Program-made: the position numbers and the translations under genes
Notes under the pieces: generated by a model
The model's database searches: none
Seen by the model: the letters and a program-made list of their open reading frames with translations, nothing else
What the model was told of the DNA's origin: nothing
Source of the DNA: Candidatus Dojkabacteria bacterium
GTDB lineage: Bacteria > Patescibacteriota > Dojkabacteria > J137
NCBI GenBank assembly: GCA_030950485.1
Contig: JAUZRK010000015.1
Location: forward strand, 2,010-66,009
DNA length: 64,000 nucleotides
Direction of reading: 5' to 3'
Shown here: positions 21,831 through 59,601 of the stretch, one piece after another
Layout: each line of letters begins with the position of its first letter
Numbering within the stretch: the first letter of the stretch is position 1

Positions 21831-24800
21831 TTACCACGTGTACCAAGATGTTCCTTCATAACTAAATACACCAGCCCAGGTTCCTCCAGGTTTTGACTTA
21901 TTAATTACACTGTCCTTATTAGCAGTTCCCATTACATAAAAGTGAACTGTTCCTCCTAACTTTTTATTTCTAAACCTATATACAGCCTCTGTTCCATTTA
22001 CACAACCATTGCTATACCTATAAGATTTCCATGCTTCACCCTCGAATGTATAAGCTCCTGCCCAATCTCCTCCTGGTGCAATTTTACTTTTAAGGTTATC
22101 TCTTTCTGTGTCTCCTAAAAGATAGAAATGTGTCCCAGGGTAATGGTTGTTCCCAAACCTATAGACACTTTCTTCTTTTATTACAATTACATTAACTCTT
22201 TCTGTAACAGTATTATTTGATGTAACTGGATCATTCTGACTTCCACTAGTCTCTGCCTTAAATGTATTATAACCAGTATTATTTAGTTTTAATACAATAT
22301 CAGCTCGAGGCTTAATACCTGGCATAATTGAACTATAATTACATATAACTATCGAACCTGAAAGACTGCAACTAGATGGTTTACTAACTAAACTATATCC
22401 GCTAGGAAGAGTTAATTTAGAAACTACTCCCGTCGCTGTAATTGTTGAACTCATATTATGAGTATTCATAGACATAGTAAACTGTTCTCCTTTACTTACA
22501 GTTGTTTTACTAGGAGTTAAATAAACTCTAAGATCTACTGAACTGCTATTTGTAGGAGGTTCAACCGGCGGAACTACTACAGATCCTTTAAACTCACTAG
22601 GATTTCCGAATGCATAATAAGCAACTCTTTCATGTCTATAATTTATACTACTAAGATCTACACTTTTACCAAGATTGTAGAAGTGTGTTTGCCTACTATT
22701 TTCAGTATTAATGTATCTTTGAACTGGTGATGATCCATTGTAATCATCTTTTAAAGTCTCATCTTTAGTTGTTATCGGCGGATAAGCATAAAAAGCTAAA
22801 GCCGGATTTAAATAGTCAGGTATTGTAATAGAATTCTCAGTTGCAACATAAAGTAACGATTGATATACGTCACTCCAATATTGATAAACAGGTACAGTTC
22901 CAGTCGCTCTATTTTTAAAAGCATAAAAGGCTGTCATATCAAATCTCCAAATTGAAATACTATACTTAACCTGAATTTTATCTTTTGCATCATTTCCAAT
23001 TACGTATAGGTGAGCTGTTTGCCCCTCTATAGGTTTGTAAAATCTGTAAACTGGAGATAATCCAGTAGCAGGATCTACTTCAGCTATTCCAGTATTAGTA
23101 TGAGCTCTACAAGTCACTGCATCATCAATATAAAATATTGGTTGCCCTCCATTCCCAAGACTCCAGCTTATAGTTGGATCATCGTCATATGAATCAGGAC
23201 TGAAATTCTTCTCAGTAGTATAGAAATTTCTAAACGGACTGCTATTCTGAGTAAAAAGGTATACCGGTTTATATAAGTTATCAGGATTAGTTTTATATGC
23301 GAAACATATATTACTTTTATCAAAGTATTCCCCCGTACCAACTAAACTACCTGCTCTTTCATAATCTGCTGTAATCTCTATAACATCTCCTTGTGGTTTA
23401 TAAAGTGTATAAACTTTAAGTGGAGAATTCACCACCTCAGCTACTTCTTTCCCACCAGTTTTATATCCTCCATTACAAATTATTCCAACAGTATCTCTGT
23501 AAACGCAGAACGTATCTCGATCATCAAAGTAAATTGTATTCATTAAAAGCGGTTGGTCTCCAGGGCTTCCAAATTGAATAAGTTCTGAAGTCGAACCGTC
23601 CTTTGCTTTTATTGAAACAGCTGTATCTGTTAGTGCAATTCCTGAGATACTGCTTGTACTTGATCTTGTACTTACGCACCTTAAAGTATCAACGCTGTAA
23701 GAACATATATCGTCAAGCCCATCACTATTAATATCACCAAGAGCTAGGTATCCAAAAGGAATATTAGTCATTGGTGAACTTACAGTTCTGCTTGTATCAA
23801 TTACTCCATTTCTATTCATTGCACATTCAACTCCAGAGGTACTGTACACACATAATTCATCATATCCATCCCCATTTAAATCTCCTATCGCCGGAATACT
23901 TCCAACTTCTCCAAATTTAATTCGAATTACTCCTGGACAAATAAGCTCCCCTTCTCTATAAACACACCTCTCAGAAATACCATCACCGTTAATGTCTCCA
24001 ACTACAGGTAAATCCTTCGGATCTCCTATTTTGTTCTGGCTTTCAAAACCTATCTTACCTGGATCAGTATCACAGTAATAGTTCACTTCTTCTTCATTGA
24101 ACTTACAAAGGTCTTCATACCCATTACCGTCAATATCTTTTTTAAATACAGTTGTATATGGTAGATAAAATTTAAGTTTAAACGGTTCAGCTTTTGCAGT
24201 TAAAGTTACTCCAGAAGAGTTAGTATACTGATACTCAACTGTCCACTCAATTTCTTTGTTTACGGGGAATTGATCAATCTCTAAGAACTGAACTTCAAGC
24301 GCTGAGTTAGCATTAAATTCTTTATCACCATATTTAATTACTGCTTTTTTAACTTCCGAGTTAGTGAATCCTTCAAAATCCCAACTGAAATTTAAAAACT
24401 TCTTTACAGTATCAATATTTACAACAGAATTATCTACAGGACTCTTCAATATTAACTCTGGCGTTATTTTAAAACTAGTCTTTGCAGGATCTGTCCAAAT
24501 ATATTCATTTGTATTCCCGTTATTATTACTATCTGCTATGTCCTTGTAATATGCTGTTATATCCCAAGTTAAGTTTTTTCCTTCAATCGATGCCAAAGTA
24601 GAATAGGGTACTGAAACTGATGTTCCACTAATTTTTCCTTGATAATAGTAAGCTCCAGAAACGCTAGTTGGCCTGTCTCCACTAGCATCATAAATCCATA
24701 ACTCATAGTATCTAGTATCATTCCCGCTGCTGTTTGAGTCAGCTAAGAATTCCTCCCATTCAAATCTAATAGAGTTTCCGTCTGGTTCAGGAGTAGCATT

Positions 24801-29156: not shown

Positions 29157-31460
29157 CTATTTCCTCACATCATGCCCACCAAACTGGTTTCTAAGTGCAG
29201 AAACAACTTGTCCAATATAGCTAGGATTACTTTTTGAATCTATTCTAAACTGCAAAGCATCTTCAATAACCTTTACTAATATGTCGATCTCTTTTGCAGC
29301 TTCAACAGTCCATTTTCCTTCGCCGTTACTATCAACTTCGCCGGAAATATTTTCTAAAGTAACTCCATCTTGATCAAAAGCTTTTAATAACCAACCAATC
29401 AATCTAGATTGGATAACACTACCTTTATTATAAATTTCAGAAACATCTTTTAGATTTAAGTTGAAATTTGATTTTCTTAAGACCTCAAAGCCTTCTGCAA
29501 TAGCCTGCATCATTCCATATTCAATTCCATTATGTACCATTTTTACAAAATGACCAGCTCCAGCTCCTTCAAAGAACTTATAACCACAAGGGAATGATAT
29601 CTGTTTAAACAATTCTTCAGTATGTAAGAAATTAGTATAATTCCCACCAATCATTGCGCAAGCACTATTTCTAGCACCACTAGGACCTCCTGAGATTCCA
29701 ACATCAATAAAATTAATGCCCTTCTGTTCAATTACCTCATATCTTTTAATAGTATTTTTATAATTTGAATTTCCAGCATCAATTAAATAATCTCCAGGCT
29801 CTAAATAATTTATTAATCCATCTTTAGCAACTAAAACATCTTCTACCGCATCGCCAGATGGAACCATAACCCAAATAATTCTAGGTGCTTTAAGTTTTTC
29901 TACTAATTCTTTATATGAATAAGCTCCTTCTCCTCCTAATCCAACAAAATTATCAATCTTATCTTTAGACCGATTATAAGCTATAACTTTCCAACCTTCT
30001 TCTAAAAGTTGTTCTGCAATACCTTGTCCCATTTTGCCTAAACCAACTACACCTATTTCTTTATTAGTTTTGTACGTGAACTTCTCATTAATGTAGTTAG
30101 ATGATTCAATAGCCTTATCTGAGTTTTGTTTATAGGTTTCTAGAGCAACTACATTATCATCCCAAGCGTTTACAATTGGATCAATAAATCTCCATGAAGC
30201 TAATACTTCTTTAAAACTTACAAACCAGGTCTGTTTTCCATGTATTACATCTAAAATTCCAATTTTGTATTCATCTAAGTACTGCTTTCTCTCCTTTGAT
30301 TCAAGAATCTTGCATTCTAGATTATCCCCATTGGCATACGACATCATATCGAAATTTATAGATAGATTTTCTTTAGGAGGAAGATTGAATTTAATATAAT
30401 TTTCTAAATTTTCAACTCCAAGATCTTTATGTGCTTTATCTACTTCTACTTCTCTAAATGTAATTTTTACATATTTTTCTTCGCTAGGAAGTTTTTTTCC
30501 TGACTGAATAATAATAGGTACATTTCTCCATTTAGGCATATCAATATAAAACTTTATTTTAAAGAATGTTTCTTTATTAGACTTTTTGTTAACACCGTCT
30601 ATTTCTCTGTATCCTTTATACTGAGCTCTATAGGTGTTATATTTTATCTCCTCAATATTCAATATTTTAAGTCTTGAAAGTAAATCAGCTCTCGCGCTTC
30701 TAATCTCTGCTGAACTAAAATCAACAGGCTTATCCATTGTTAATAAAGCTACTATTTGCAGAATATGATTTTGTCCTACGTCTTTTAATGTTCCTACACT
30801 ATCATAGAAGGCTCCTCTAGTTTCAACTCCGAAATCTTCATTTAAAACGATTTCAATTTTCTCTATTGAATCATTATCCCAGGCGAATTTATAAATAGAA
30901 TTGAAAAATCTTAATGCAAAGATATTTCTTACAATTCCCTTATGAAGATAGTGGTCAATTAAGAAAGTTTCTTCTTCACTAAAGCATGACTCTAAGAGTC
31001 TATTGATTTTTATTGCGCTTAAAAAATCAGTTCCTATTGGTTTCTCAACTATAATCCTAATATTTGTATCTTTAAATTCACCTCTAATATTTTTTAGATT
31101 ACCGATAATATCTGAATATGCATCTCCTCTTACAGCAAGATGGAAGATAGTATTTGAAGTAGAGTTCTTTAGTATTAATTTGCTTAACTCCTCATATCCT
31201 TTTGGATCATTAAAATCAGTTGAAACAAATTCTATTATTTCAAGGAATTTTTCAGTGCTTTCGCTGTAGTTATGAAGAACTTGTGTCTTTAGATATTCTC
31301 TAAATTCTTTATTATCAAAGGTTCTCCGAGAGATTCCTATAATTTTGAAATTTTTTGAAAGCTTATTTTCTTTATATAGTTCGAAGAGGGCTGGGAGGAT
31401 CTTCTTTTTAGCAAGATCTCCAGTTGCACCAAATAAAGCGAATGTTGCTGAGTTATCCAT
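29157..31460 (-). CDS. Fused glucose-6-phosphate dehydrogenase (N-terminal) and short-type 6-phosphogluconate dehydrogenase (C-terminal)
   Basis: N-terminus has FALFGATGDLAKKK (G6PD NADP site), IDHYLHK (DHYLGK motif) and RGAFYD. C-terminus has EIGVVGLGKMGQGIAEQL (Rossmann fold) and the 6PGD signature GAGAGHFVKMVHNGIEYGMMQAIAEGF. 767 aa in one ORF. Confidence 0.8.
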   Translation of the reverse strand: MDNSATFALFGATGDLAKKKILPALFELYKENKLSKNFKIIGISRRTFDNKEFREYLKTQVLHNYSESTEKFLEIIEFVSTDFNDPKGYEELSKLILKNSTSNTIFHLAVRGDAYSDIIGNLKNIRGEFKDTNIRIIVEKPIGTDFLSAIKINRLLESCFSEEETFLIDHYLHKGIVRNIFALRFFNSIYKFAWDNDSIEKIEIVLNEDFGVETRGAFYDSVGTLKDVGQNHILQIVALLTMDKPVDFSSAEIRSARADLLSRLKILNIEEIKYNTYRAQYKGYREIDGVNKKSNKETFFKIKFYIDMPKWRNVPIIIQSGKKLPSEEKYVKITFREVEVDKAHKDLGVENLENYIKFNLPPKENLSINFDMMSYANGDNLECKILESKERKQYLDEYKIGILDVIHGKQTWFVSFKEVLASWRFIDPIVNAWDDNVVALETYKQNSDKAIESSNYINEKFTYKTNKEIGVVGLGKMGQGIAEQLLEEGWKVIAYNRSKDKIDNFVGLGGEGAYSYKELVEKLKAPRIIWVMVPSGDAVEDVLVAKDGLINYLEPGDYLIDAGNSNYKNTIKRYEVIEQKGINFIDVGISGGPSGARNSACAMIGGNYTNFLHTEELFKQISFPCGYKFFEGAGAGHFVKMVHNGIEYGMMQAIAEGFEVLRKSNFNLNLKDVSEIYNKGSVIQSRLIGWLLKAFDQDGVTLENISGEVDSNGEGKWTVEAAKEIDILVKVIEDALQFRIDSKSNPSYIGQVVSALRNQFGGHDVRK

Positions 31461-31562: not shown

Positions 31563-32786
31563 CTAAGCAGCCTGTACTATAGGTTTACCTTTACTGTTAG
31601 TATCAGATCTCTTCATAAAATCGGCTCTGTCAGATTTCTCAAAATCTCCTACTGGGCTAATATTTAATTGAGTATTGTAACTTGTAGGTAGACCTTGGGG
31701 ATCTGAAATTGTGAATACAATATTTGGTATTTGACCAGAATAATTTAAATCAGTAGGTGTAAAGGTTACATCTCCTGTTCTATTATTCACTGTGAATGTC
31801 CCGATACTATCTTCATTACCTACTTCTACAGGTGAAAAATCCTCATCTAACCCCACAGTAGTTATACCTCCAGTAAATGGAATTATATTTCCATCAATTG
31901 TAATGTTTGATAGTCTCAATTCGTTTAAATTATTGTCAACATCTTCAATTATTTCTATATTATCTTGGTCAGTGAAGGCATTAAATCTAGCTTCCTCTGT
32001 TTGATCAAAATTTAGAACCCTTCCGTTTGTTCCAAAATCTCTAATCACTTCAGGTTCATCATTAACTGAGCCAACAAAGACTCCATTAACAGCTACTGTA
32101 GTAGTTCCTCCACCAGAATCACTTACTCCAAAAACAAATCTTGGAACTTCACCATGAAAATTTAACTCAGGTGTGAAGTTTACGATACCAGTTTCTGGAT
32201 CTACCTCAATATGACCGACTATATTATTACCATCTGCGTCGTAGATTGCTACAGGTTCTTTAAAATCACTTGAAATATGAATTGTATCTTCTCCTGTGAT
32301 AACTCTAACGTCTGTGATTCTTGGGACATCTCCTTCATCAATATTTTCAACATAATCAAAGACACTTATTATAGAAGTAGTATCTTCTTCAATTTTTATC
32401 GTAGGTACGTTTTTTATTGTTGTAGGTGCGTCATTAACAGGATCTACTATTATATCTAATCTTTGAGATGCTGTTGAAATTCCGTCACTAACATTTACTT
32501 CAACATAAGGAACTGCTCCATTAAAGTTTTCAGTTGATCTAAAGAAAATATTTTCAGTTCCATTATTAACACTCAGTGTCCCAATAATTTCCCCTTTTGC
32601 ATTTAGTACCTCAATATTATTGGCACCCCCAGTTACTCCTATTGTCTCTCCATTAATTACTACATCAGTTATATTAAGAGCATCTCCACCAACATCAGTT
32701 ACATTATCAAATACATTATTTACAAAGATGTTTGTATCTTCGTTACCGGTTACCTCAATCGTGCTTATTGCTACTACGGGGCATCA
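31563..32786 (-). CDS. C-terminal segment of the VNDAP-repeat adhesin (frameshifted continuation of 32774..35578)
   Basis: The frame is open from 32783 to 31563 with no start codon. It reads ..VVAISTIEVTGNEDTNIFVNNVFDN.. directly after the ...PVNDAP* end of the upstream ORF. The GTG reported as a start is internal. Confidence 0.55.
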
Positions 32787-35578
32787 TTAACCGGAGTTAC
32801 AGTAATATCTAGCAATGTTGAATCGTATTCACCATTCCCGTCTCCAACATAAACTCTTGGCATCTCTGGAGTTCCATTATAATCCTGCGCTGGATCAAAC
32901 CAAGTACTTCCATCAGATGCTATAGCTAAGGTTCCTGCAATTACAGTGTTGTCCGCGGAGTCATTTACTGGTATAAATGTATATCCTGTCTGATCTAGAT
33001 AATGCCACTCATTGTTAATATAAACGGCAGCTACATTTAAGTTATCTCCATCAACATCAGTAAAATTATCTAATACATTAGGTAGTTGAGCAAAGTCTGT
33101 GAAATCACTAGAATAATCTTCTTCAATTTCAAATGGAATAGTTGGACTAAGTGCTTCGGGAGCGTCATTAACAGCAGCAGCTGATGTAGTAGCTGTAAAA
33201 CTAGTCCCTCCTGCTAAAGAAACTGTAATAGTTCCTATATCACCATTAAAGTTTTCAGGGGTAACTATGCTAACATCTCCATTTTTGCTTACTAATATTG
33301 CTACTGTTTCACCAGTTTCTAATGTTATATTTGTTGGCGAACCAATTTTGATTTCAACATCTCCAATTGTAATAGACTCAATTTGTACAGAGCCATTCAT
33401 ACTATCGAAATTATCTTTGATATTTCCAACTATATTCCAATCGTTATTTCCATCTTCATTTGAATCATAATCTTCTACTGTAGTTAGTGTAAGATTATCA
33501 TCATGAATTATTGGAGGCAATACTTCAAGTAAACCTTGAACATACTCTGAGTTATAACTATTGCTTTGCCAAATTACTTCTCCAGTACTATTAGTAGTAT
33601 GAGTCATTCTAGTTACTCCAGACTCATCTTCAATAAAGTAGTATTTATTACCTGCAGTATCCTCAGTAAAACCATACTCTATAGTTTCTGTTCCTATGTC
33701 TGTTACTCTTGTAAACTCATTTAGAGTAATAGTATCTCTTGTTAATTCTACTGTTTCGCCAGTTTCTTCATTAACAATAATTGCAGGCTCTCCTTCTTCA
33801 GTGTATAGAATTGCATAATCTATATTTAGCTCTGGTCTAACTGTAAAGTCTCCTCCAATAGAGTCTTTGTCGTGATAGTAAGTCTCACCATCTTGCTCTA
33901 CCGGATATAAGTTTCTTCCATCATCAGTTACAATAACTTCTCCTTCAACATAATTGAAACTATTACCTGGATCTCCGTAAACTAGAACTGCATCATCATT
34001 TGAATTTATATAGCTAACACTACTAATATAAGTACCATTAACTGTAATTTCTAATTGTTCATGTCCACCATTGTTGGTAGGTGCATATATTGTATAGTCA
34101 TTACTTCCATCTACATTCTCACTAATAGGAACAAATGTCGTCTCATTACTTCCATTTGATGAATCTTGGATGTAAAATCCAACAACTTCGTCCGCTTCAT
34201 TTGTCGCTACAAATACTGTATCGTTACCTTTTGCTATTCCTGCATTTCCACTTAATACAACTTGTTCACCTGCGTTATCAACAGTAATATGAGTAACTCC
34301 AGCAGCTTCTGCTAATTCACTATTTGTAACTATAAGAAGATTATCATCAGTATCATTATCTAATATTATATAGCCATCATCATTGTCCACTTCTATAGAA
34401 CCCAGCGGATTAGTATAAACTGTTTGTGCAGTTGCATTTGTAGTAGTGCTGCTTTGAATTTGGGCTATAGTTAAGTCAGCTACTGTTGTTTCAAGATAAT
34501 TAGTATCTCCCTCTCCCGATGCTACCCATCCAGTGTGCTCAGAACCAATGTTATCTTCGAAAGTAACTTCTAACCATGTAATACCTTCGTTATAAACGCT
34601 ATTGCCTGTTAGAGTTAAAGTATCTCCATCTGATATTGTAACTTCTGTATATCCATCTGGGTAAGTTACTTCATCAGAATTTGTTGAAGGGAAGCTTCTG
34701 AAATTTAAGTCAGCTTCGTTCGTAGCAACAGTTACAGTGGTATTAGCTTCGTGCTCTACTCTAGTATGAGTATTCTCATTACCTGATACAGTTTTGCTAA
34801 ATCTCCTATTTGTATGTTTATCATCATTACTATCTTTATCAGTACTATCACTAGAATGTTTTGATCTTACAGCCTTTATATGTTTATTTTCTTCTTTAGA
34901 TTCATCAGTTACAGTTAATGCTATTTTTGCAACACTTACTGTTCCATCCTTATTATCAATAATCTTATCTGTAACGATTTCTTTGTGATTTGCTGATAGT
35001 ATTTCAATCTCCTCTTGCTTACCTGCATCATCAAAAATTATCATTTTCGTAGATCCACCTTTGCTCGTATCTCTTGGATCATTAGGTGTAAACTTGAAGA
35101 TATTCTCACCTTCTTTGAAATAAACTGAACCATCTTTGTCTACTAATGTGGTATCGGTTTGTTTAAGTTCTTCTCTTAAATCTACTTTACTCGGGTCATA
35201 AACGATTATGTTTAATTGAGAAGCTACATATAACTGTATAGTTCTTAACATTAAATCAACTCTAGATTGAGCTAATTCAATATTTTCTTCTATTTGATCT
35301 CCTGCTTTTGCTAGAGATAACTCTAATATTTGAGTGATTTGTTCGCTTAGGAAATAAGCATTGGTAATTGCATTTTCTGTAACTAAAGTGGTTATTTCAC
35401 TTACTTTGTGTGCTAACTGATTTGCATTTAATTTAGCAGTTTCGACTGTATCGTTTACAGCTCTAGCAGTATCGATAAAATGAACTAGCGGAGTTGCCTC
35501 TATAGCTTCCGATGTTTCAGTAGCGTAATGATGCAAGATAGTTCCTAATTGATCATTTAATCCATGAAATGTATGCAT
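32774..35578 (-). CDS. Giant adhesin-like protein with cadherin/VCBS-like VNDAP repeats (N-terminal 934-aa segment)
   Basis: Recurrent ..VNDAP.. motifs. T/S/N/D/G-rich beta-strand repeats. Ends at a G4 run where the frame shifts. Confidence 0.65.
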   Translation of the reverse strand: MHTFHGLNDQLGTILHHYATETSEAIEATPLVHFIDTARAVNDTVETAKLNANQLAHKVSEITTLVTENAITNAYFLSEQITQILELSLAKAGDQIEENIELAQSRVDLMLRTIQLYVASQLNIIVYDPSKVDLREELKQTDTTLVDKDGSVYFKEGENIFKFTPNDPRDTSKGGSTKMIIFDDAGKQEEIEILSANHKEIVTDKIIDNKDGTVSVAKIALTVTDESKEENKHIKAVRSKHSSDSTDKDSNDDKHTNRRFSKTVSGNENTHTRVEHEANTTVTVATNEADLNFRSFPSTNSDEVTYPDGYTEVTISDGDTLTLTGNSVYNEGITWLEVTFEDNIGSEHTGWVASGEGDTNYLETTVADLTIAQIQSSTTTNATAQTVYTNPLGSIEVDNDDGYIILDNDTDDNLLIVTNSELAEAAGVTHITVDNAGEQVVLSGNAGIAKGNDTVFVATNEADEVVGFYIQDSSNGSNETTFVPISENVDGSNDYTIYAPTNNGGHEQLEITVNGTYISSVSYINSNDDAVLVYGDPGNSFNYVEGEVIVTDDGRNLYPVEQDGETYYHDKDSIGGDFTVRPELNIDYAILYTEEGEPAIIVNEETGETVELTRDTITLNEFTRVTDIGTETIEYGFTEDTAGNKYYFIEDESGVTRMTHTTNSTGEVIWQSNSYNSEYVQGLLEVLPPIIHDDNLTLTTVEDYDSNEDGNNDWNIVGNIKDNFDSMNGSVQIESITIGDVEIKIGSPTNITLETGETVAILVSKNGDVSIVTPENFNGDIGTITVSLAGGTSFTATTSAAAVNDAPEALSPTIPFEIEEDYSSDFTDFAQLPNVLDNFTDVDGDNLNVAAVYINNEWHYLDQTGYTFIPVNDSADNTVIAGTLAIASDGSTWFDPAQDYNGTPEMPRVYVGDGNGEYDSTLLDITVTPVNDAP

Positions 35579-40961: not shown

Positions 40962-41873
40962 ATGGCAATAAACACTAAGGCAATCAAAACAAGGATTCAA
41001 TCAGTAGAGAACACGAAGAAGATAACTCGTGCAATGCAGATGATTGCTGCGGTAAAAATGAAGAAGGCTGTTAATGCAGCTATTAGAACAAGAGAATATA
41101 GTGAACTTTCTTACGATCTTATGAGAAATCTAGCAGGCACTGAGCTCAATCATCCCTTAGCAAAAATACGTAAGGCAAAGAACTGTCTTCTTATAGTTCA
41201 TACTTCAAATAGAGGCCTTTGCGGTAGTTACAATGCTAATATAATTAGATCAGTAAGTGAATATATTGATAATAACTCTGATGTTAATTTTTCAATGATT
41301 GCTTTAGGTAATAAAGCAGCAAGGGTAGCTAAAAATTATAATCTGGAATTAGTTGGATTATATGAAAAGTTAAATGAGAACCCTAAATATGAAGATATAA
41401 TTCCTCTTGCTAAGGAAATGACTGATAAATTTATTGATAACGATATAGATCAAGTCATTGTAGCTTATACAAATTATATTTCAGGACTAAATCAACAAGT
41501 AGAATTACGTGAGATCTTACCTTTCAAGAAAAAATCTATAGAAGATTTTTATAAGAATGCAGGATCAAGAAATGAAAGTGAAGAAATTGGTGAAAAAGGA
41601 ATTGATTCAAAAGATGAATATGAATTTGAACCAAAAAAATCAGAGGTTCTAAAATATATAATTCCGATACTTGTAGAAATACAACTTTATCAAGCATTAT
41701 TAGAATCAACTGCAAGTGAGCATAGTAGTAGGATGATTGCTATGAAAAATGCAAGCGATGCTGCAGGAGATATGATTGATGACTTAACTTTACAATTTAA
41801 TAAAGGTAGACAGGCTGCTATTACACAAGAAATTAGTGAAATAGTTGCAGGAGCATCTGCTTTAGATAACTAA
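40962..41873 (+). CDS. atpG: F0F1 ATP synthase subunit gamma
   Basis: N-terminal IKTRIQSVENTKKITRAMQMIAAVKMKKA and C-terminal ..ITQEISEIVAGASAL helices. Length is as expected. Confidence 0.85.
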   Translation: MAINTKAIKTRIQSVENTKKITRAMQMIAAVKMKKAVNAAIRTREYSELSYDLMRNLAGTELNHPLAKIRKAKNCLLIVHTSNRGLCGSYNANIIRSVSEYIDNNSDVNFSMIALGNKAARVAKNYNLELVGLYEKLNENPKYEDIIPLAKEMTDKFIDNDIDQVIVAYTNYISGLNQQVELREILPFKKKSIEDFYKNAGSRNESEEIGEKGIDSKDEYEFEPKKSEVLKYIIPILVEIQLYQALLESTASEHSSRMIAMKNASDAAGDMIDDLTLQFNKGRQAAITQEISEIVAGASALDN

Positions 41874-42405
41874 TGAGAGAAATAGAACTTAAATATAAGA
41901 TAAATGATAACCAAGATATAATTGGAATTCTTAATTCGTTAGGTTGTGATTTATCTGGTGAGATAGTTCAGAAGGATAAGGTTTACTCTAGAAAAATTGA
42001 TAATAAACATAGTGTTTTTAGAATAAGAACTCAAGAATATAGAGGAATTGAAAAGACTCTGTTGACATTAAAGCAAGATATTACTAGCGAGTTAGATTGT
42101 CTTGAAAGTGAAATTGAAGTTGACGATGCGGATAAGACTGAAGAAATGTTGGAATATTGGGATTTAAATTTGGAGTTGAGGTAAGTAAGAAGAGAAGAAA
42201 GGGGAATTGGAGAGGTGTTACTGTTTGTTTTGATACAGTAGAAGGACTGGGAGATTTCATAGAGCTAGAATATCTTACTGACGCAGAAGACGTAGACGCT
42301 GAACTTGAGATTAAAAAATTAGAAGGAAGAATGAGCGAAACTGGCATTGAAGGTTACGAAAGAGTATTTAAAGGATACGATAGCTTATTGCTAGAAAAAA
42401 AATAA
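41873..42405 (+). pseudogene. CYTH-domain protein (CyaB/thiamine-triphosphatase-like) inserted in the atp operon, frameshifted
   Basis: EIELKYKI...FRIRT...LTLKQ then, after a -1 shift near 42155..42160, GFKFGVEVSKKRRKGNWRGVTVCFDTVEGLGDFIELE. These are CYTH motifs. The two ORFs are in different frames and overlap by 28 nt. Confidence 0.55.
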
Positions 42406-50712: not shown

Positions 50713-50790
50713 TCTAAATAGAAGGAGAGTCATTGTCAGTTTTTCTTTCTAATTGGTAATCATTAAATGGCATTATTACCTATTAATAAA

Positions 50791-52496
50791 TCAATTTTGT
50801 TTAGTTCTTTTTGTAAAGTTAGCAATTAAGAAAAATAGATTTAATACACCTATTCTTCCAAATAGCATTAAGGTTATCATTACCCATTTAGATCCAATAC
50901 TGAAAGCTGCATAGCCTCCGGCTGGACCCTCATTTATAGCTCCAAAGAAGTCTGTTGGTCCAATATTTCCAAGATTTGCAATTGAAGCATTAAAGGCTGT
51001 AGCGAAGTCTATGAATTTTGAATCAAAGATTAAAATTAATATACCTCCTGCTATAAACAATATAAAGTAAAAAGCTATGTTTACAGTGATTAAAGACATA
51101 TCTCGTCTATTAAATTTACTCTCATCAATTTTTATATCTTGAAACTCATGCTTTCCTGATATAAAGTTACTAACTTCATTTTAATGTTGATAAAAAAAGC
51201 AATAAACCTTTTTACTTTAAGCCCTCCTCCAGTAGATCCAACTGTTCCACCTACAAAATAAACTATGAAAAGAATAGTTACAGCAATTATTGGCCACCCT
51301 GTAAAATCCCAATTTTCTAGTCCTGTAGTAGAAATTACAGTACCAACAGCAAAGAACGAGTATCTTAAAGTTTCTTCAATATTTGAATAATAATTATAGT
51401 GCCACAGGGTTAATGCTATTAGGCCGGATATTAAAAAGCTTAAAGCTATATATACTTTCATTTCTGTATTTTTCCAAAATGCTTTTTTATCTTTCTTGTA
51501 AAAGAATATATACCAAACTCCAGAATTTGCACCACTAGCAAACATAAAGAAAGTAATTATCCATTCCGAGACTGGGTTCTGAAGTCCCCCCATTATAAAA
51601 TGACCACTTTCATCAAGAATAAGTTCCCCATTCTCAGACACCTCAGGTAGACCTGCGATGTTTCCGTAGTGACTAAATCCTCCAGTACCTAATGTTGAAA
51701 ATGAATGTGTAATAGAATCATAAGCATTATCATACCAATGTTCGTAAGGCTGTTGTCTAAAGAATTGTCCCGAGATTAACATTAGAACAATCATTATAAG
51801 TGTTAATAGGCCGTAAGTTTTTATAAAGTCAAATCCTGAGTTTCTTGCTTCATGTTCATCTTTAAATTCTGTAGCTTCAGGTGATTCAACTTCTGCATTT
51901 ATTAGATTAAATCTACTATATTTAAAATTATTTAATAGCGTTATGGTCATATATACAAGTCCCATTCCTCCAATCCAGTGAGAGACTGTTCTCCACATTA
52001 GTACACTTCTTGGTAATGATTCAATATCTAACAAAATAGTTGACCCTGTTGTAGTTAATCCAGACATTGATTCAAAGAACCCATCAGTAAAGACTCTCAT
52101 CGCACTAAAGGTCTATCCAGTAGGAGAGTTTGGATATCCAGCTAAAATAAATACTATTGCAGAAATTAAACTAGCTATTATCCAAGCATTAACAACTATT
52201 AAGACTGATAACTTAAAATCTATTTTTCTTTCGAAAATATGGTGCCCGTGTAAGTAGTGTCCAATACCAAATAAAATAGCAGCTATACCCGAACCTATAA
52301 ATGTCGGCAGCAGATTCTCGTCTTCAAATCTATTATCATTTATAACTAAATAGAAAAAGCCTATCCCTGCACTGAAAAGTAATCCAAGGAATATACTTAA
52401 TTGAAAGTGCAGTGCTACTATTATCGAATAAAATATGTTTTCATTATATGGTAACTTTTTATCAGTAATAATAACCTTACTTATTAAATAAATCAA
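50791..52496 (-). pseudogene. trkH: TrkH/KtrB-family K+ uptake permease split into three ORFs
   Basis: The family signature runs across 52496..52113, 52100..51132 and 51099..50791, including GLTTTGST, GGLKVKRF..., and SIANLGNIGPT...KWVMITLMLFGRIGVL. A TAG at 52113..52115 is in frame between fragments 1 and 2. Fragments 2 and 3 are joined by a 1-nt frameshift near 51130..51136. Confidence 0.75.
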
Positions 52497-52712: not shown

Positions 52713-53006
52713 CTAGGTTTTAGTATTTTTCTTCGTGAATTTTTCTGGTACAAAATTAGGATATTCTCGAAGTTTTTTCACAAACAACTCATATGAATAA
52801 TCATATTCAGTTAACATTTTAATCACCTCTTCTTCTGATAAAGCTTTACTTTCACTTTTATTTTCTTCCATCCCACTATTTAAAGACAGTGTAAAACTAC
52901 CTCCATTAACTGGCCAGATACCCCATTCTTGATCAAGATACCTTGATACGAAGAAATAGCCTTTTTTAATTTTCTTTAAAAACCTTTTTGCCTGTGCTTC
53001 TGTCAT
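52713..53006 (-). CDS. Hypothetical protein
   Basis: 97-aa basic ORF. Confidence 0.35.
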   Translation of the reverse strand: MTEAQAKRFLKKIKKGYFFVSRYLDQEWGIWPVNGGSFTLSLNSGMEENKSESKALSEEEVIKMLTEYDYSYELFVKKLREYPNFVPEKFTKKNTKT

Positions 53007-53187
53007 ATTTTGTTTATAAATATATACATTTAAATCTTAATATGCAAGATAGTAGACGTCAACTAAGCTTATAATAAATACTCTGATCTGAGTTAATATC
53101 ATATGAAAACATAGTCCCTTTAAATTCATACTAGATTCATTCAATGCATGTAATATATATTTATTAATTAATTTTATTACATTCAGT

Positions 53188-53872
53188 ATGAATACTAGTT
53201 CAAAAAGTGCTCTGATTTTTGGAATACCCTTATTAATTATATTCGTATTCTATATTTTTTCTGGTAGTGATAGCGATGATAATTTAGAAGATACTATAAG
53301 TAATGATGTAGATAATTTTATTGAACACGAAACTCCAGAGCCTGAATACGTTGTTAATAAAAATGATCTTGTTAACCATAGTGAAGTTTTAGATATAGAT
53401 AAGACTCTGAATTAAGTGAAGAGGAGATCTCAGATCTTATATATATGAGGGAGGAAGAAAAACTAGCACATGACGTATATGTAACTTTATATGAGCAATG
53501 GAAAAAAACGTTTTTAATAATATTTCAAAAAGTGAAATAACTCATACAGAGTCAATTAAAACTTTGTTAGATGCATATGAGATAAATGATCCATTTATAG
53601 AAGGAGTAGGTGAATTTACAAACAAAGATCTGTCAGCACTTTATGATCAACTAACAGTATATGAAAATCTACAAAGAGGTTCGCGAAATCATTTAAGAGC
53701 TTTTGTTAAAAATCTGAATAATTATGGAGAAGATTATTCCCCAAGTTATATTTCTAAAGAAGAATTTAATCTAATTATTTCTGGGGAAAATGAAATAGGC
53801 CAGGGATCATCAGGCAATCAAGATGATGGATCTGGACTAAGTAGAGGAAGCGGGTATAAAAATATTAGGTAA
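53188..53872 (+). pseudogene. DUF2202-like (ferritin/rubrerythrin-like) secreted protein carrying two frameshifts
   Basis: A signal-peptide ORF runs 53188..53415. It is followed, in other frames, by LSEEEISDLIYMREEEKLAHDVYVTLYEQW and then NVFNNISKSEITHTESIKTLLDAYEINDP. The shifts sit at 53410..53415 and at the A7 run 53502..53508. Confidence 0.45.
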
Positions 53873-53952
53873 TTAGCCCTATCAATAAAATAATAGATAA
53901 GCGGTTGTTTTTTAGCTATTTATTTTTTCTTTCTTTCTTCTTGATAAATTTC

Positions 53953-53997
53953 AAACTGTTTAATATACTATACCCTATATAGTATATTAAACAGTTT
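53953..53997. promoter_or_regulatory. Perfect 20-bp inverted repeat AAACTGTTTAATATACTATA-CCCTA-TATAGTATATTAAACAGTTT immediately upstream of the CsoR-like gene
   Basis: Directly read. It ends 2 bp before the start codon at 54000. Candidate operator or promoter element. Confidence 0.6.
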
Positions 53998-53999
53998 TT

Positions 54000-54248
54000 A
54001 TGAAAGAACTAGAGAACAGAGTAAATAGAATCATAGGTCAATTAGAGTCAGTTAAAAAAGAGATTACAAAAGAGAACTATGACTGTGGACAAATTGTTCA
54101 GCAAGTAAAAGCTATCTCAGGCTCTATAAAATCATTTGGGAAAGCCTTTGCAGAGGAAGATATTAAAGCCTGCATGAATAAGGATTTATCAAAAGAGGAA
54201 ATTAAAGAAAGACTAGAAACTATTCTAGATGTCGCATTTAAATATTAA
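54000..54248 (+). CDS. CsoR/RcnR-family repressor, CstR-like (two conserved Cys)
   Basis: The RIIGQLESVKKEI...YDCGQIVQQVKAISGS...IKACM helix pattern and length (82 aa) match the CsoR family. Two Cys are placed as in persulfide-sensing CstR. Confidence 0.65.
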   Translation: MKELENRVNRIIGQLESVKKEITKENYDCGQIVQQVKAISGSIKSFGKAFAEEDIKACMNKDLSKEEIKERLETILDVAFKY

Positions 54249-54260
54249 TAAATAATAAGT

Positions 54261-54578
54261 ATGGATACTATTAGCGTAAAAGAATTAAAAGAAAAATTGA
54301 AGAATATGTCTGAAGATGAAATTGTAGTTGATGTACGAACTCAGGCTGAGTTTTCAGAAGTAAGAATAGATGATCCAAAGGTTATAAATATAGAGCTGAG
54401 TACAGTTATTCATAATGCTGAAGCTTTAGAAGGCAAGAAAGCATACTTAATCTGTAATAGTTGAAGTCGTAGTTATATGGCGCAACTTTTACTTGCAAAT
54501 AAGGGAATTCAAGCTGTAAATATTGACGGTGGAATGGTTTTATGGATAGAGCCTAAATATCCAGTAATAAAAGATTAA
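54261..54578 (+). pseudogene. Single-domain rhodanese with an in-frame TGA at the active-site Gly position (CNS[TGA]SRS)
   Basis: ...KKAYLICNS then TGA (54462..54464), then SRSYMAQLLLANKGIQAVNIDGGMVLWIEP in the same frame. The rhodanese loop consensus is C-x-x-G-x-R-(S/T). Confidence 0.6.
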
Positions 54579-54599
54579 TTTAGATTTTTAAAGTAAATT

Positions 54600-56303
54600 A
54601 TGAAAGCTATAGACATAAACAAAAATCAATTTAAAAAAGAAGTATTAGACTCAGAAAAAGCAGTATTAGTAGACTTTTGGGCTCCTTGGTGCGGACCTTG
54701 TAGAATGATGGCACCAATCTTAGATGAATTAGCATCTGATGAAGATCTTAAGGATAAATTAAAGATTGTAAAAATAAATACAGAAGAAGTTGAGAATAGA
54801 GACCTTGCTATCCTTTACAAAATACAGAGTATACCTAATATGAAACTGTTTTTTAATGGTCAAGTAGTCGAAGATTTTATTGGATTTAGAGCTAGAGCTG
54901 ATTTTAAAAGAGATCTACAAGCTTCAATTTCTAAACTTGAAGTTAAAGCAAGTGCTTCTCAGGAAGATAAATATGGAATAACAAGATTTTATGATGAAAA
55001 TCTAGCACATGCGTCGTATGCAATAATTTCTGATAAGAAAGTGATGTTGATTGATCCAAGTAGAGATTTACAGAAATATTATGATTTTGCAGATGAAAAT
55101 AATGCTGAAATAATCGGGGTGATTGAGACACATCCACATGCAGATTTTATATCTTCTCATAAGCTTATTTCTCTAGAAAAGGGTGCAAAAGTGTACGTTT
55201 CAGAATTACTAGGAGCGGAGTATGAATATGAAGGATTTGATAATGGCGACGAAATTAAGATGGGTCAAGTAGTTTTTGAATCATTTAATACGCCTGGACA
55301 TTCACCAGATAGTATATCGATTTTAATTAAGGATAATGAAGGAACCCAAATAGCTATTTTTACCGGCGATACTTTATTTGTTGGTGATGTTGGAAGGCCT
55401 GATTTAAGAGAAGGCGTTGGGAATGTAATGATGAGTAGAGAAGAACTAGCTGAGAAACTATATCACTCTATTCATGATGTTATAGCAGAGTTTAAAGATG
55501 AAGTTATAGTTTATCCTGCTCATGGTAATGGATCATTATGTGGAAAAAATCTATCAGATGAGCCTAGTTCAACTATTGGAAAAGAGAAGAAAACTAATCC
55601 AGGCTTTTTAGCTAAGGATAAAAATGAATTCGTTAAGTATATTTTGGAAGGGCAACCCTATGTTCCAAAATATTTTCCAAATTCAGTTCAGTTAAATAGA
55701 AAAGGAGTCTTAAGCTATAAAAACAGACTTACTGAACTTGCAAATTCTGAAAATGTCTCAATATTAAAAGAGGATGATATGGTTATCGATATAAGAAGTA
55801 AGGCTGATTATGAAATTAAACACATTCCGGGATCACTAAACATTCAGTTTGACGGTAAGTTTGAAACCTGGCTAGGATCAATCTTAGATCCAAAAGAGAG
55901 ATTCTATATAGTAAAGGGTGCGTATCTATTGGAAGATGTCGTAAGAAGAGTAGCAAACATTGGGTACGAAGAAAATATTATTTCTATAATCTCAGACGAT
56001 TCGATTGTTTCTAACTCTGTTATTTCTTCTCTTCCAGAAAGTAAAGAAATTCTAGAAAAGGAATTTACGATTATAGATGTAAGAGAGGAATCCGAGGTAG
56101 AAAATCGTAAGTACTTTGAATCTTCAATTAATATTCCCTTACAACATTTACGAGAGCGAGTAAACGAGATAGATACTTCAAAACCCATAATAGTTCACTG
56201 TGCTGGGGGTTATAGATCTCAAAGTGCAGCTACTATACTGAGAGATCATTTTAAGAATAGAGTTGAAGTTTATGATCTTGGTTCAAGTGTTGATAAATAT
56301 TAA
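54600..56303 (+). CDS. Thioredoxin - metallo-beta-lactamase (persulfide dioxygenase-like) - rhodanese fusion, CstB-like
   Basis: N-terminal WAPWCGPCR thioredoxin motif. MBL motif ETHPHADF plus downstream His/Asp ligands. C-terminal rhodanese with the catalytic IVHCAGGYRSQ. Confidence 0.7.
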   Translation: MKAIDINKNQFKKEVLDSEKAVLVDFWAPWCGPCRMMAPILDELASDEDLKDKLKIVKINTEEVENRDLAILYKIQSIPNMKLFFNGQVVEDFIGFRARADFKRDLQASISKLEVKASASQEDKYGITRFYDENLAHASYAIISDKKVMLIDPSRDLQKYYDFADENNAEIIGVIETHPHADFISSHKLISLEKGAKVYVSELLGAEYEYEGFDNGDEIKMGQVVFESFNTPGHSPDSISILIKDNEGTQIAIFTGDTLFVGDVGRPDLREGVGNVMMSREELAEKLYHSIHDVIAEFKDEVIVYPAHGNGSLCGKNLSDEPSSTIGKEKKTNPGFLAKDKNEFVKYILEGQPYVPKYFPNSVQLNRKGVLSYKNRLTELANSENVSILKEDDMVIDIRSKADYEIKHIPGSLNIQFDGKFETWLGSILDPKERFYIVKGAYLLEDVVRRVANIGYEENIISIISDDSIVSNSVISSLPESKEILEKEFTIIDVREESEVENRKYFESSINIPLQHLRERVNEIDTSKPIIVHCAGGYRSQSAATILRDHFKNRVEVYDLGSSVDKY

Positions 56304-56320
56304 ATTAAAAAATTTAAAAA

Positions 56321-56785
56321 ATGAACGTTAAATTAAATAAAAATTCACTAAAAATCTTTACTGCAATCTTTGGAACAATTATTGTTGTTGGCTTTTTTAT
56401 CATTATGAATTCTAATGATAAATGTGCAAATGATTCAGAAGGTAATACAGAATCTATAGCTCAATTTCAAACAGTAAATGCTTCAGATTTTCAAAAAGAG
56501 ATTGTAGAACAAGATGCTGTGATTTTAGATATAAGAACAAAGGATGAGTATGATTTGGGAAGAATTTCTAATTCTATAAATATCGATTATTACAGTCCTA
56601 GGTTCAGAAATGAGTTAGAAAAATTAGATAAAGATGCAGAATATAAAATTTATTGTAATTCAGGAAATCGAAGTAAGACAGCTTTAGATATTATGAAAGA
56701 ATTGGGATTTACAAATGTAACAGAGCTAAAAGGTGGGATTCAGGCGTGGATTAACTCAGGGGGAGAGACTTGTGTAAATTGCTAG
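56321..56785 (+). CDS. Membrane-anchored/secreted single-domain rhodanese
   Basis: N-terminal TM helix. Catalytic loop KIYCNSGNRSKTA. Confidence 0.65.
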   Translation: MNVKLNKNSLKIFTAIFGTIIVVGFFIIMNSNDKCANDSEGNTESIAQFQTVNASDFQKEIVEQDAVILDIRTKDEYDLGRISNSINIDYYSPRFRNELEKLDKDAEYKIYCNSGNRSKTALDIMKELGFTNVTELKGGIQAWINSGGETCVNC

Positions 56786-56832
56786 GAATGAAATAAGTTA
56801 AGAAGGGAACTCTATTAGCTCCCTTCTTATTT

Positions 56833-57804
56833 CTATTCAGAAATTTTTAATACAACATTTCCAATTTTATGACCAGAATCTACATACTCATGAGCTCTAA
56901 CTATTTCATCTAGACTATAAATTTTACTAATTACAGGTTTGATCATTTTTCTTTCATATAAATCCTTCAAGTAATCTAATTTCTCTTTTGTATCATTTGA
57001 AACACCAGAAACAATTTTCTTAGAATTAAAAATATTACTGATAAACATTCTTAGATAAAAGGGTAATCCTCCAACCATTTGAACAAACTTTCCTTTTTCT
57101 ACTAGGGAATCTTTAGAGTCTGAAAAGTTTAATTTACCAATAGTATCTAATATCACATCATATTTCTTTTCTAACTTTGTAAAGTCCTCAGACTTATAAT
57201 CGATTACAAAATCTGCACCTAGAGTGCTAATTAATTCATGATTCTTTTTAGTACTAATACCTGTAACTTCTGCACCAAATATTTTTGCTAATTGGACTGC
57301 GGCAGTTCCCACACTTCCGGAAGCCCCGTTAATCAACACTTTATCACCGCTTTTAACTCCAGCTTTTGTAAGGAAATAGTGTGCTGCTCCAAACCCAAAC
57401 GGAATAGATGCTGCATCTTCAAAACTCATATTATTAGACATTTTAACTATTACATTATCAGCCTTTATCTTCATAAATTCAGCATTAGCACCAGATTTTG
57501 ATGAATAGCCAAATACTTTATCTCCAACATTAAACTCTGTAACATCAGCTCCAGTTTCAGTAATGATCCCAGAAAACTCACTTCCCAAAATACTATATTT
57601 GGGCTTTTTAAATCCAAACATCAACCTGACGAAAAAACTCATACCTTCAGGGACATTAATAGCTCTAATTCTAGCCTCACCTGATGTGACACTTCCTGAT
57701 TTTACTTCTATTAAAACTTCATCTATTGATATTTTTGTCTTACTTATATCTTGAATCTGAAAAACGTCTGCGTCGCCATAGCTATTTATTATTACTGCTT
57801 TCAT
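56833..57804 (-). CDS. MDR-family NAD(P)H quinone oxidoreductase / zinc-independent alcohol dehydrogenase-like protein
   Basis: GASGSVGTAAVQLAKIFGA cofactor-binding motif. 323 aa. Confidence 0.7.
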   Translation of the reverse strand: MKAVIINSYGDADVFQIQDISKTKISIDEVLIEVKSGSVTSGEARIRAINVPEGMSFFVRLMFGFKKPKYSILGSEFSGIITETGADVTEFNVGDKVFGYSSKSGANAEFMKIKADNVIVKMSNNMSFEDAASIPFGFGAAHYFLTKAGVKSGDKVLINGASGSVGTAAVQLAKIFGAEVTGISTKKNHELISTLGADFVIDYKSEDFTKLEKKYDVILDTIGKLNFSDSKDSLVEKGKFVQMVGGLPFYLRMFISNIFNSKKIVSGVSNDTKEKLDYLKDLYERKMIKPVISKIYSLDEIVRAHEYVDSGHKIGNVVLKISE

Positions 57805-57828
57805 AATTTTAAACTTAAAAATTTGTAT

Positions 57829-58035
57829 TTACTTATATTCGAAAACTTTACTAATATCTTTATTAAAAACTTTAGAGATTTTAAATGCAAGCTCAAGAGA
57901 AGGCGAGTAATTACATTTTTCTATTGCAATAATAGTTTGTCTAGTTACCTCAACTAGTTTTGCTAGATCTTCTTGTGTTAAACCAGCTTCTGCTCTTAAA
58001 GTTTTTATATTGTTTGCAATACTTTCCTTACTCAT
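57829..58035 (-). CDS. XRE-family helix-turn-helix transcriptional regulator
   Basis: LTQEDLAKLVEVTRQTIIAIEK (Cro/C1 HTH). 68 aa. Overlaps the upstream membrane gene by 4 nt (ATGA). Confidence 0.75.
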   Translation of the reverse strand: MSKESIANNIKTLRAEAGLTQEDLAKLVEVTRQTIIAIEKCNYSPSLELAFKISKVFNKDISKVFEYK

Positions 58036-58862: not shown

Positions 58863-59471
58863 ATGGACGTAACAACAAAAATCAATAAAATTAATAAACG
58901 TAAATGGGAGGAGTATAATATTCGAACAGATTTTACCTCATTACGTATTTTAACTTTTATTAAGGTAATGATTATAACAACTGTAGTATTAGCAACTTAT
59001 TGGTTTATGACTAATATTATTACCTCAGTTTATATATCGAAAATTTCAGTCCTCTTACTTATAGTTTTAATATTTTATTATTTAGTAGAGACTTTAGTTT
59101 TTTTACATAAAAGCTCACTAACTATTCTTTTTATCCCAGGAAATATTCAGATTATTGAAGGAAATTACTTTGATTCAATTCAAGGGAAAATAATTATAAA
59201 TCGCGGGTTAATTTTTAAAAGAATAAGAACATTAGGGATAAGTGAATTTGATAGAGTTACTGTTTTTCAAAATCCTATTCAAAGGATTTTAAATACTGGA
59301 ACTATTAAACTTATTGAAGTAAATAAATTATCAGATACAACTTCAATTTACTTTTCGTATATTAAGAATCCTCAGAATATTGCTAGAAAAATTCAGAGTA
59401 TGATAGATATTGAAGGCAGTGTAACTCAGAGAATTAAATCTTTCTCAAATGCTGAGGTTATTTCTCAGTGA
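58863..59471 (+). CDS. Membrane-flanked bacterial PH-domain protein (YdbS/YdbT-like)
   Basis: Two N-terminal TM helices, then a beta-rich ..IQIIEGNYFDSIQGKIIINRGLIFKRIRTLGISEFDRVTVFQNPIQRILNTGTIKL.. PH-like fold. Confidence 0.45.
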   Translation: MDVTTKINKINKRKWEEYNIRTDFTSLRILTFIKVMIITTVVLATYWFMTNIITSVYISKISVLLLIVLIFYYLVETLVFLHKSSLTILFIPGNIQIIEGNYFDSIQGKIIINRGLIFKRIRTLGISEFDRVTVFQNPIQRILNTGTIKLIEVNKLSDTTSIYFSYIKNPQNIARKIQSMIDIEGSVTQRIKSFSNAEVISQ

Positions 59472-59601
59472 TGACTCTTCTCTAAAAGTTAAGTCAAGAA
59501 ATTAATCAGGTTAATAAATATTTCTAGAAATAAGATTTAGAAATTTCTCAAGATAAACGAAATGAGATGTTGTCATTTATTTTAACAAGCTTAATGTATC
59601 C

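Follow-up and report, generated by a model that had tools for sequence, protein, structure and literature searches.

A cst-like gene cluster in a Dojkabacteria genome

The DNA analysed here, a stretch of 64,000 nucleotides from a Candidatus Dojkabacteria bacterium (contig JAUZRK010000015.1 of assembly GCA_030950485.1; hereafter the window), carries at 53953-56785 a perfect palindrome followed by four plus-strand genes that probably form an autoregulated operon for reactive sulfur species, that is, for coping with persulfide and sulfide stress. The palindrome (53953-53997) precedes the gene for a CsoR-family, CstR-like repressor of 82 residues (54000-54248; Pfam Trns_repr_metal, PF02583, 1.5e-15). 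There follow a gene for a single-domain rhodanese interrupted by an in-frame TGA (54261-54578; Pfam Rhodanese, 1.1e-11 on readthrough), a gene for a 567-residue fusion of a thioredoxin, a metallo-β-lactamase and two rhodanese domains (54600-56303; Thioredoxin 2.9e-26, Lactamase_B 1.6e-14, Rhodanese 6e-19 over two stretches), and a gene for a rhodanese with a putative membrane anchor or signal, in which a hydrophobic N-terminal segment precedes the catalytic domain (56321-56785; Pfam Rhodanese, 9.6e-20). The intergenic gaps are 12, 21 and 17 nt. Beyond the last gene, a terminator-like hairpin (56799-56829; 13-nt arms, 92% complementary), which was also called by a terminator scan, lies between the operon and a convergent dehydrogenase gene and is likely to be a bidirectional terminator. 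The same four genes occur in the same order at a second locus, here termed L001, on a contig of 40% G+C. An earlier reading of this DNA, made from the letters alone (the sequence-only reading), had named the palindrome, the repressor, the TGA-containing rhodanese, the thioredoxin-metallo-β-lactamase-rhodanese fusion and the anchored rhodanese, and Pfam together with the sequence places each of them where that reading had put it. Directly upstream of the operon, and ending 80 nt before the palindrome, is a gene for a DUF2202 (ferritin-like) protein (53188-53872) that looks truncated or degraded, its best-matching stretch covering profile positions 117-161 of 162. A separate 75-aa open reading frame (ORF) with a signal-like N-terminus stands in front of it.

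The window has a G+C content of 31.7%. Its host had been taken in the sequence-only reading for a Bacteroidota-like organism, which was mistaken: AtpD and the repressor are 100% identical to proteins listed at NCBI under 'MAG: Candidatus Dojkabacteria bacterium' (MAG, metagenome-assembled genome), and the Dojkabacteria (WS6) fall within the candidate phyla radiation (CPR). The accompanying remark that the organism makes little use of Shine-Dalgarno (SD) sequences was borne out, as SD-like motifs precede two of 35 genes against a background of 11.5%. A second assembly, GCA_030949735.1 (JAUZSD010000007.1; loci L083 and L084), covers window positions 32434-55795 at 99.8-99.9% identity, with 17 substitutions and 26 gaps in 21 kb. 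For the most part these differences are indels of one base, often in homopolymers, so that both assemblies are to be regarded as somewhat noisy; the pattern resembles the consensus noise expected of assemblies that are error-prone (long-read-like). One such difference, at window position 54849, breaks the gene for the fusion protein in the second assembly.

The repressor

Pfam PF02583 covers residues 2-75 of the repressor at 57.7 bits, against a gathering cutoff of 22.8. Among solved structures the best match of the single sequence is SpCstR (7MQ1; 2.5e-5), a structurally characterised persulfide sensor, and a profile of seven subfamily members again places SpCstR first (4.7e-11; 46.0 bits versus 42.5 for InrS). 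Cys29 and Cys58 align with C30 and C59 of SpCstR, and where CsoR has its Cu(I)-ligand His the window protein has Asp54, corresponding to Asn55 in SpCstR; the L001 orthologue also has Asp there. Both cysteines are invariant within the subfamily. CstR proteins share the fingerprint x-C-x-C, in which the two cysteines are conserved and there is no His at the Y position (PMC8643695), and this is the arrangement of Cys29, Asp54 and Cys58 in the window protein. The two cysteines on which the sequence-only reading had made its assignment depend are, in other words, both in place. The neighbourhood is of the CstR type as well, since in the window and in L001 alike the operon of the repressor contains three rhodanese-bearing genes and a CstB-like persulfide dioxygenase. 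A protein homologue search with the 82-aa repressor returned the repressor itself only. The protein can be called CstR-like in its working parts, and it is a possible member of the established CstR clusters (3, 4 and 10 of the sequence similarity network).

A conserved operator candidate that overlaps the predicted promoter

The palindrome consists of two 20-nt arms, 53953-53972 (AAACTGTTTAATATACTATA) and 53978-53997, which are 100% complementary and enclose the spacer CCCTA, and it ends 2 nt before the ATG at 54000. In the 64 kb there is only one other perfect inverted repeat of at least 20 nt, a 34-bp palindrome at 21083-21116 (AACTCAGTATGTGAATTAATTCACATACTGAGTT) situated between two paralogous genes for secreted proteins (20378-21067 and 21123-21785, minus strand). 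The proposal that the repeat before the repressor gene is an operator has been strengthened by a phylogenetic footprint. A metagenome scan with the two repressors, of the window and of L001, yielded 25 loci, and when the upstream regions of the closest relatives were compared the core of the palindrome (ATACTATAC...GTATAGTAT) was found to recur before related CsoR-like genes in independent loci (L001, L085-L087, L088, L089, L090 and L094). In the window the conserved core spans approximately 53962-53988 and reads ATATACTATA-CCCTA-TATAGTATAT; its counterparts are ATATACTATACT-GG-AGTATAGTATAT in L089, L090 and L094 and TATACTATA-CCCCA-TATAGTATA in L087, with variants of the same inverted repeat before the CsoR-like gene in L085, L086 and L088. 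Between the window and L001, whose orthologue is 44% identical, the sole block shared by the upstream regions is ATACTATACCC..TAT.GTATA, and it lies at the palindrome. The pattern TACTATA-N1-9-TATAGTA has one match in the window where 0.01 would be expected, and it is also present at six other independent CsoR loci; 80 unrelated thioredoxin loci that served as controls all lack it. The arms in the related loci are only 8-12 nt long, and the outer 8-10 nt of the 20-nt arms in the window are specific to this genome.

Similar sites are known from the Firmicutes. The core in the window and in L001 resembles the cst operator of Streptococcus mitis (ATATACCCTTATGGGGTATAT), although the half-site of the cst-like operons of S. 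mitis and Enterococcus faecalis is ATATACCCC and that of the window is TATACTATAC instead. The cst operator of Staphylococcus aureus is an AT-rich inverted repeat with TATAC...GTATA flanks, as in the window.

The candidate operator would also be well placed to control transcription. The best sigma-70-like promoter in 53300-57000 is TTGATA-17-TATACT at 53941-53969 on the plus strand (10 of 12 matches); its -10 hexamer is made by the left operator half-site, and the predicted start, at about 53976, falls inside the palindrome. In L001, L088, L089, L090 and L094 it is the right half-site, TATAGT, that appears to be used: read by eye, it lies 5-6 nt before the ATG, and a -35-like hexamer is found 17-18 nt upstream of it. 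From this position it follows that the half-site doubles as a -10 box in these loci and that the mRNA would be leaderless or nearly so. In either half-site arrangement, bound repressor would occlude RNA polymerase.

Neighbours of the related repressors

The genes that accompany the operator-sharing repressors are similar in kind. According to Pfam, a CsoR gene is followed by a thioredoxin gene in L089 (1766-2247), L090 (1066-1640) and L094 (3986-4554), a gene for a membrane-anchored rhodanese is divergent from a CsoR-thioredoxin pair in L088 (3534-4564), and genes for a TlpA-like redoxin, DUF6691 and Sulf_transp are divergent from CsoR in L085 (957-2903). The neighbouring thioredoxins have the active sites WCPPC or WCAPC. 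Because its neighbours are thioredoxin, rhodanese, redoxin and Sulf_transp/DUF6691 genes, the repressor subfamily is tied to thiol and sulfur trafficking, with thioredoxin as a recurrent member. By contrast, in L091 the CsoR gene precedes an 852-aa gene read by eye as a CopA-type ATPase, and here the operator motif is missing. The operator-sharing loci may constitute a thioredoxin-centred regulon, of which no earlier description was found.

A thioredoxin-CstB fusion enzyme

The third gene of the operon encodes a protein in which a thioredoxin domain (residues 1-110) is followed by a CstB-like persulfide dioxygenase (approximately 127-370), an inactive rhodanese domain (approximately 380-470) and an active rhodanese domain (482-561). 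The best solved-structure matches of residues 127-552 are 3TP9 (2.6e-64) and 3R2U (1.5e-59). The latter matches S. aureus CstB, since a constant tag offset of 24 residues puts its Cys-Gly, Arg, Cys and Arg exactly at the published positions. Roles have been assigned in CstB to C201-G202, R370, C408 and R413 (PMC12934615), and all are kept in the fusion, as C314-G315, R495, C534 and R539. The metal motifs are likewise retained, namely THPHAD (H178, H180, D182), TPGH (H234), TGD (D257) and AHG (H308), and, like its counterpart in CstB, the middle rhodanese domain lacks Cys. The sequence-only reading had made its case conditional on the metal ligands of the metallo-β-lactamase domain, and these are present together with the Cys-Gly loop and the rhodanese Cys and Arg. 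Judged by its sequence, the main enzyme of the operon is a CstB-type persulfide dioxygenase-rhodanese with every catalytic residue kept. The full-length proteins closest to this core, 447 aa long and about 50% identical, belong to Cytophagales (such as Pontibacter and Algoriphagus).

The protein departs from the three-domain layout of CstB (about 445 aa, no further domains) in its additional N-terminal thioredoxin. This domain scores 101.6 bits against the NCBIfam thioredoxin equivalog TIGR01068 (cutoff 96.8), has the active site FWAPWCGPC and shares 56-58% identity with thioredoxins that other CPR bacteria encode as separate proteins. The best 120 homologues include only one other protein fused in the same way, P0001 (582 aa, 58% identical), which is encoded by L001. 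Since P0001 belongs to the same four-gene cluster there, the fusion is real and no artefact of assembly. A scan of genome contigs with the fusion alignment keyed on the generic DFWAPWC and returned only stand-alone thioredoxins, and looking up the exact sequence of the fusion protein gave no entry. The recurrent thioredoxin neighbours of the related repressors fit an origin of the fusion from a cstR-trx-cstB arrangement. No description of a thioredoxin-persulfide dioxygenase fusion was found among the titles and abstracts covered by a literature search.

The accessory rhodaneses and an in-frame stop codon

The rhodanese encoded by the last gene has the active loop CNSGNRS and a C-terminal C-x-x-C motif (TCVNC); in the L001 orthologue the hydrophobic N-terminus is kept and the protein ends in TCTNC. 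The sequence-only reading had called it a membrane-anchored periplasmic rhodanese. The N-terminal hydrophobic segment supports the first part of that description, and 'periplasmic' is better replaced by 'extracytoplasmic', the topology being deduced from the primary structure alone.

The small rhodanese is 67 aa long if the in-frame TGA terminates translation and 105 aa on readthrough. As had been pointed out, the TGA (54462-54464) stands at the Gly position of the catalytic loop, which reads CNS-[TGA]-SRS where its paralogues in the cluster have CNSGNRS and CAGGYRS. In the L001 orthologue, which is uninterrupted, the corresponding codon is GGT (Gly), and the stop would thus be accounted for by one G-to-T substitution in GGA. 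Beyond the TGA the protein retains 38% identity to this orthologue, compared with 49% ahead of it, and this remaining conservation indicates that the lesion is recent. Other disruptions are found nearby. The gene for TrkH (50776-52496, minus strand) is split into three ORFs by an in-frame TAG at 52115 and a frameshift, and two further TGAs on the minus strand interrupt ORFs that continue beyond them, at 27902 (a 440-aa secreted repeat protein) and 61831 (a full-length DUF1905 domain). The rhodanese TGA and the TrkH TAG are no random consensus errors, because both assemblies carry them. The alternative for these two is a systematic error common to both assemblies, and no shared sequence motif of the kind that systematic base-calling errors would give was seen around the four in-frame stops. 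The small rhodanese gene is most likely a genuine, recent nonsense allele (GGA to TGA), best read as one of several signs of gene decay in this genome and as no feature of the sulfur system.

It is highly improbable that the TGA is instead translated, whether as Gly (genetic code 25, as in Gracilibacteria and SR1), as selenocysteine or by programmed readthrough, and that the small rhodanese is functional. An open frame after the stop, a C-terminal part that keeps RS, GG and W as well as its similarity to the orthologue, the presence of the codon in two assemblies, the two further TGAs within continuing ORFs and the existence of a rhodanese selenoprotein family (NF041203) could all be cited in favour of translation. 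TGA nevertheless behaves as a terminator elsewhere in the window. When frames are extended to the next TAA or TAG, five of eight genes have their TGA among the final 15 codons, a placement with P ~1e-5 if TGA were a sense codon distributed uniformly; examples are a TGATGA at 59469-59474 and, at 58032-58035, an ATGA in which a stop overlaps a start. Of 25 DUF1905 homologues the majority carry Arg or Lys where the window has TGA, and just one carries Gly, and therefore no single reassignment fits both this site and the rhodanese; a solved-structure search for DUF1905 gave nothing useful, and the homologues used were representative proteins. The TAG and frameshift in TrkH show that disruptions are not specific to TGA. 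Code 25 was rejected on the grounds that TGA ends several genes, that AtpA, AtpD and enolase contain no TGA and that DUF1905 calls for Arg or Lys. None of the TGAs has a stable hairpin downstream of it (z = 0.56, -0.53 and -1.13). Selenocysteine was also rejected, because no hairpin resembling a selenocysteine insertion sequence (SECIS) lies downstream of the rhodanese TGA (z = 0.56), the match to NF041203 reaches 24.4 bits against a cutoff of 115, and the loop position is off: the name of that family (rhodanese_LYCAU) implies selenocysteine at C+2, and the TGA here is at C+3.

Proposed mechanism and its alternatives

In the autoregulated operon proposed here, the dithiol CstR-type repressor would bind the palindrome. 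Because this site overlaps both the -10 hexamer and the predicted start of transcription, binding would block RNA polymerase. Sulfane sulfur would bridge Cys29 and Cys58′ as a di-, tri- or tetrasulfide, and the bridged repressor would leave the DNA and allow the operon to be transcribed. By analogy with CstB, Cys314 of the fusion enzyme would then acquire a persulfide, the Fe(II) site would oxidise this to an S-sulfonate, and the S-sulfonate would meet the persulfidated Cys534 of the C-terminal rhodanese domain with release of thiosulfate. The fused thioredoxin (WCGPC) probably acts in cis, delivering or resolving persulfides or polysulfides of proteins, and could in this way replace the low-molecular-weight thiol carriers of the Firmicutes. 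The membrane-anchored rhodanese may handle sulfane sulfur or thiosulfate outside the cell, and the small cytoplasmic rhodanese would have been inactivated in this strain by the recent GGA-to-TGA change. A bolder version is possible, though on balance doubtful. The thioredoxin would be a built-in persulfide carrier or resolving thiol, such that sulfane sulfur is converted to thiosulfate on protein thiols alone, without glutathione, bacillithiol or coenzyme A (CoA). Together with the divergent CsoR subfamily and its own operator (ATATACTATAC-N2-5-GTATAGTATAT, which would also serve as the -10 box for transcripts with a short leader or none), this would define a thioredoxin-centred reactive-sulfur regulon of which no earlier description was found.

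Several points weigh against an operon for persulfide and sulfide stress. The repressor is only about 30% identical to SpCstR, and the margin of SpCstR over InrS and CsoR is only about 3.5 bits. NCBIfam yields only weak matches, to RcnR, FrmR and RicR. Two members of the operator-sharing subfamily, L085 and L087, carry His at the Cu-ligand position, which is a caution for the subfamily as a whole and not for the window protein. Promoter-like sites in the AT-rich region 53300-57000 are no more numerous than chance would give. SQR, CstA, TauE and CoA-persulfide reductase are missing from the cluster, and no sqr, cstA or tauE domains were found in 53000-57900. That the thioredoxin domain serves in cis as a carrier of persulfide or as a reductant is hypothetical. 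Finally, persulfide dioxygenases need O2, and CPR bacteria are usually described as anaerobic fermenters.

Some of these points would suit a repressor that is an ordinary sensor of Cu(I) or another metal, of the CsoR/RcnR kind, with a sulfur neighbourhood that is coincidental. The weak NCBIfam matches and the two relatives with His have this sense, as do the Pfam family and the NCBI name of the protein, 'metal-sensitive transcriptional regulator' (Candidatus Dojkabacteria). Such a sensor is nevertheless very unlikely, given Asp and not His at the Cu-ligand position in both the window and the L001 repressor, the lack of copA, copZ or any other metal efflux gene inside the cluster, the tight, operon-like gaps to sulfurtransferases and a persulfide dioxygenase in two organisms, and the absence of the operator motif from relatives with true copper neighbours (L091). 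That the palindrome acts as an RNA hairpin, terminating the upstream DUF2202 gene or occluding the start codon, is also quite unlikely. If fully transcribed it would fold at -22.2 kcal/mol (z = -9.3), a short T run follows it, and the gene before it ends 80 nt upstream. The terminator scan does not call the palindrome, however, its T tract being too short; transcription from about 53976 would include only the right arm; and a search of 53300-57000 against Rfam matched no RNA family. In the related loci, furthermore, the arms shrink to 8-12 nt and yet the sequence is conserved, always before a CsoR-like gene and doubling as a -10 element.

The purpose of the operon could also be a different one, namely sulfur assimilation, energy gain from thiosulfate or persulfide, or a general response to thiol/disulfide stress with thioredoxin at its centre, without persulfide detoxification. 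It has been proposed, in the passages of PMC10811913 that deal with them, that persulfide dioxygenase-rhodanese pairs in CPR bacteria oxidise thiosulfate for energy; several of the related repressors control only a thioredoxin gene (L089, L090 and L094); and CstR proteins also react with tetrathionate in vitro (PMC8643695). Against this stand the CstB type of the enzyme, whose Cys-Gly shuttle loop in S. aureus turns two persulfides into thiosulfate without energy conservation, and the lack of an electron-transport partner in the cluster, and a purpose of this sort seems unlikely.

Relation to known systems

The proposed operon for persulfide and sulfide stress has its closest parallels in the Firmicutes. 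Like the S. aureus cst operon (CstR, CstA, CstB, SQR, TauE), it combines a dithiol CsoR-family repressor that lacks the Cu-ligand His with a CstB-type enzyme of one persulfide dioxygenase and two rhodanese domains, in which the Cys-Gly loop, the rhodanese Cys and both steering Arg residues are conserved. It differs in having no SQR, multidomain CstA or TauE, in the fusion of a thioredoxin to CstB, in the exported rhodanese and in its CPR host. In S. aureus the repressor gene is divergently transcribed, whereas here it is the first gene of the operon. The description as a cst-like cluster, which goes back to the sequence-only reading, is supported by the CstB core, the two-Cys repressor and the operator footprint, and the missing SQR, CstA and TauE reduce it to a partial resemblance. 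The cst-like operons of E. faecalis and S. mitis (CstR, RhdA, CoA-persulfide reductase, RhdB) share with the window a CstR or CstR-like repressor combined with single-domain rhodaneses, and streptococcal SpCstR is the closest solved structure to the window repressor; unlike them, the window has a persulfide dioxygenase in place of CoA-persulfide reductase, and its repressor is only about 30% identical. Copper-sensing CsoR proteins (Mycobacterium tuberculosis, Bacillus subtilis, Thermus) belong to the same Pfam family and have the two Cys positions in common, but the window protein has Asp for the His ligand and no copper efflux genes nearby.

Within the CPR, pairs of persulfide dioxygenase and rhodanese genes were described in 2024 from Doudnabacteria, Kaiserbacteria and others (PMC10811913), and because of this publication a persulfide dioxygenase in a CPR bacterium is not in itself new. 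Those pairs resemble the window in that a persulfide dioxygenase stands beside a sulfurtransferase in a CPR genome. They differ in that the two are separate genes of a BpPRF-type model, as that source presents them, whereas the enzyme of the window is of the CstB type; thioredoxin was searched for in PMC10811913 as a term and is not mentioned, and the passages on the pairs describe no regulator, operator or exported rhodanese. The finding reveals no new kind of system. The cluster would work like the cst systems of the Firmicutes. Among what could be searched, three features appear to be new: the thioredoxin-CstB fusion, of which there are two examples, the presence in an operon of this kind of an exported rhodanese whose C-terminus carries a CxxC, and a divergent subfamily of CsoR proteins that has a conserved operator of its own.

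CPR bacteria are regarded as having a minimal, mostly fermentative metabolism, and their gene regulation is poorly known. A complete module of sensor, operator and enzyme, here a footprinted candidate operator and a CstB-type enzyme that by analogy would depend on O2, would show them to be actively managing both sulfide and persulfide stress, probably where oxic and sulfidic conditions meet. The module would also provide a repressor-operator pair that is directly testable, which is rare for the CPR. The thioredoxin-CstB fusion can be viewed as a natural experiment on the recently proposed shuttle mechanism of CstB, with a hint as to which thiol partner loads or resets the enzyme.

Other features of the window

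Elsewhere in the window, the minus strand encodes at 29157-31460 a 767-aa fusion in which a glucose-6-phosphate dehydrogenase (G6PD_N and G6PD_C) is joined to a 6-phosphogluconate dehydrogenase-like module (NAD_binding_2 and 6PGD). Between atpG and atpD lies a 103-aa ORF (41873-42184) with no Pfam match; in the other assembly the corresponding protein is 183 aa long and has a CYTH domain, so the window copy may have been cut short by an indel. Two very large surface-type proteins are encoded on the minus strand, one of 1652 aa (21831-26789) with two M23 peptidase stretches, FG-GAP, DUF11 and three DUF5648 stretches, and one of 934 aa (32774-35578) with cadherin-like domains. Domains like those of these two proteins flank the four-gene cluster in L001.

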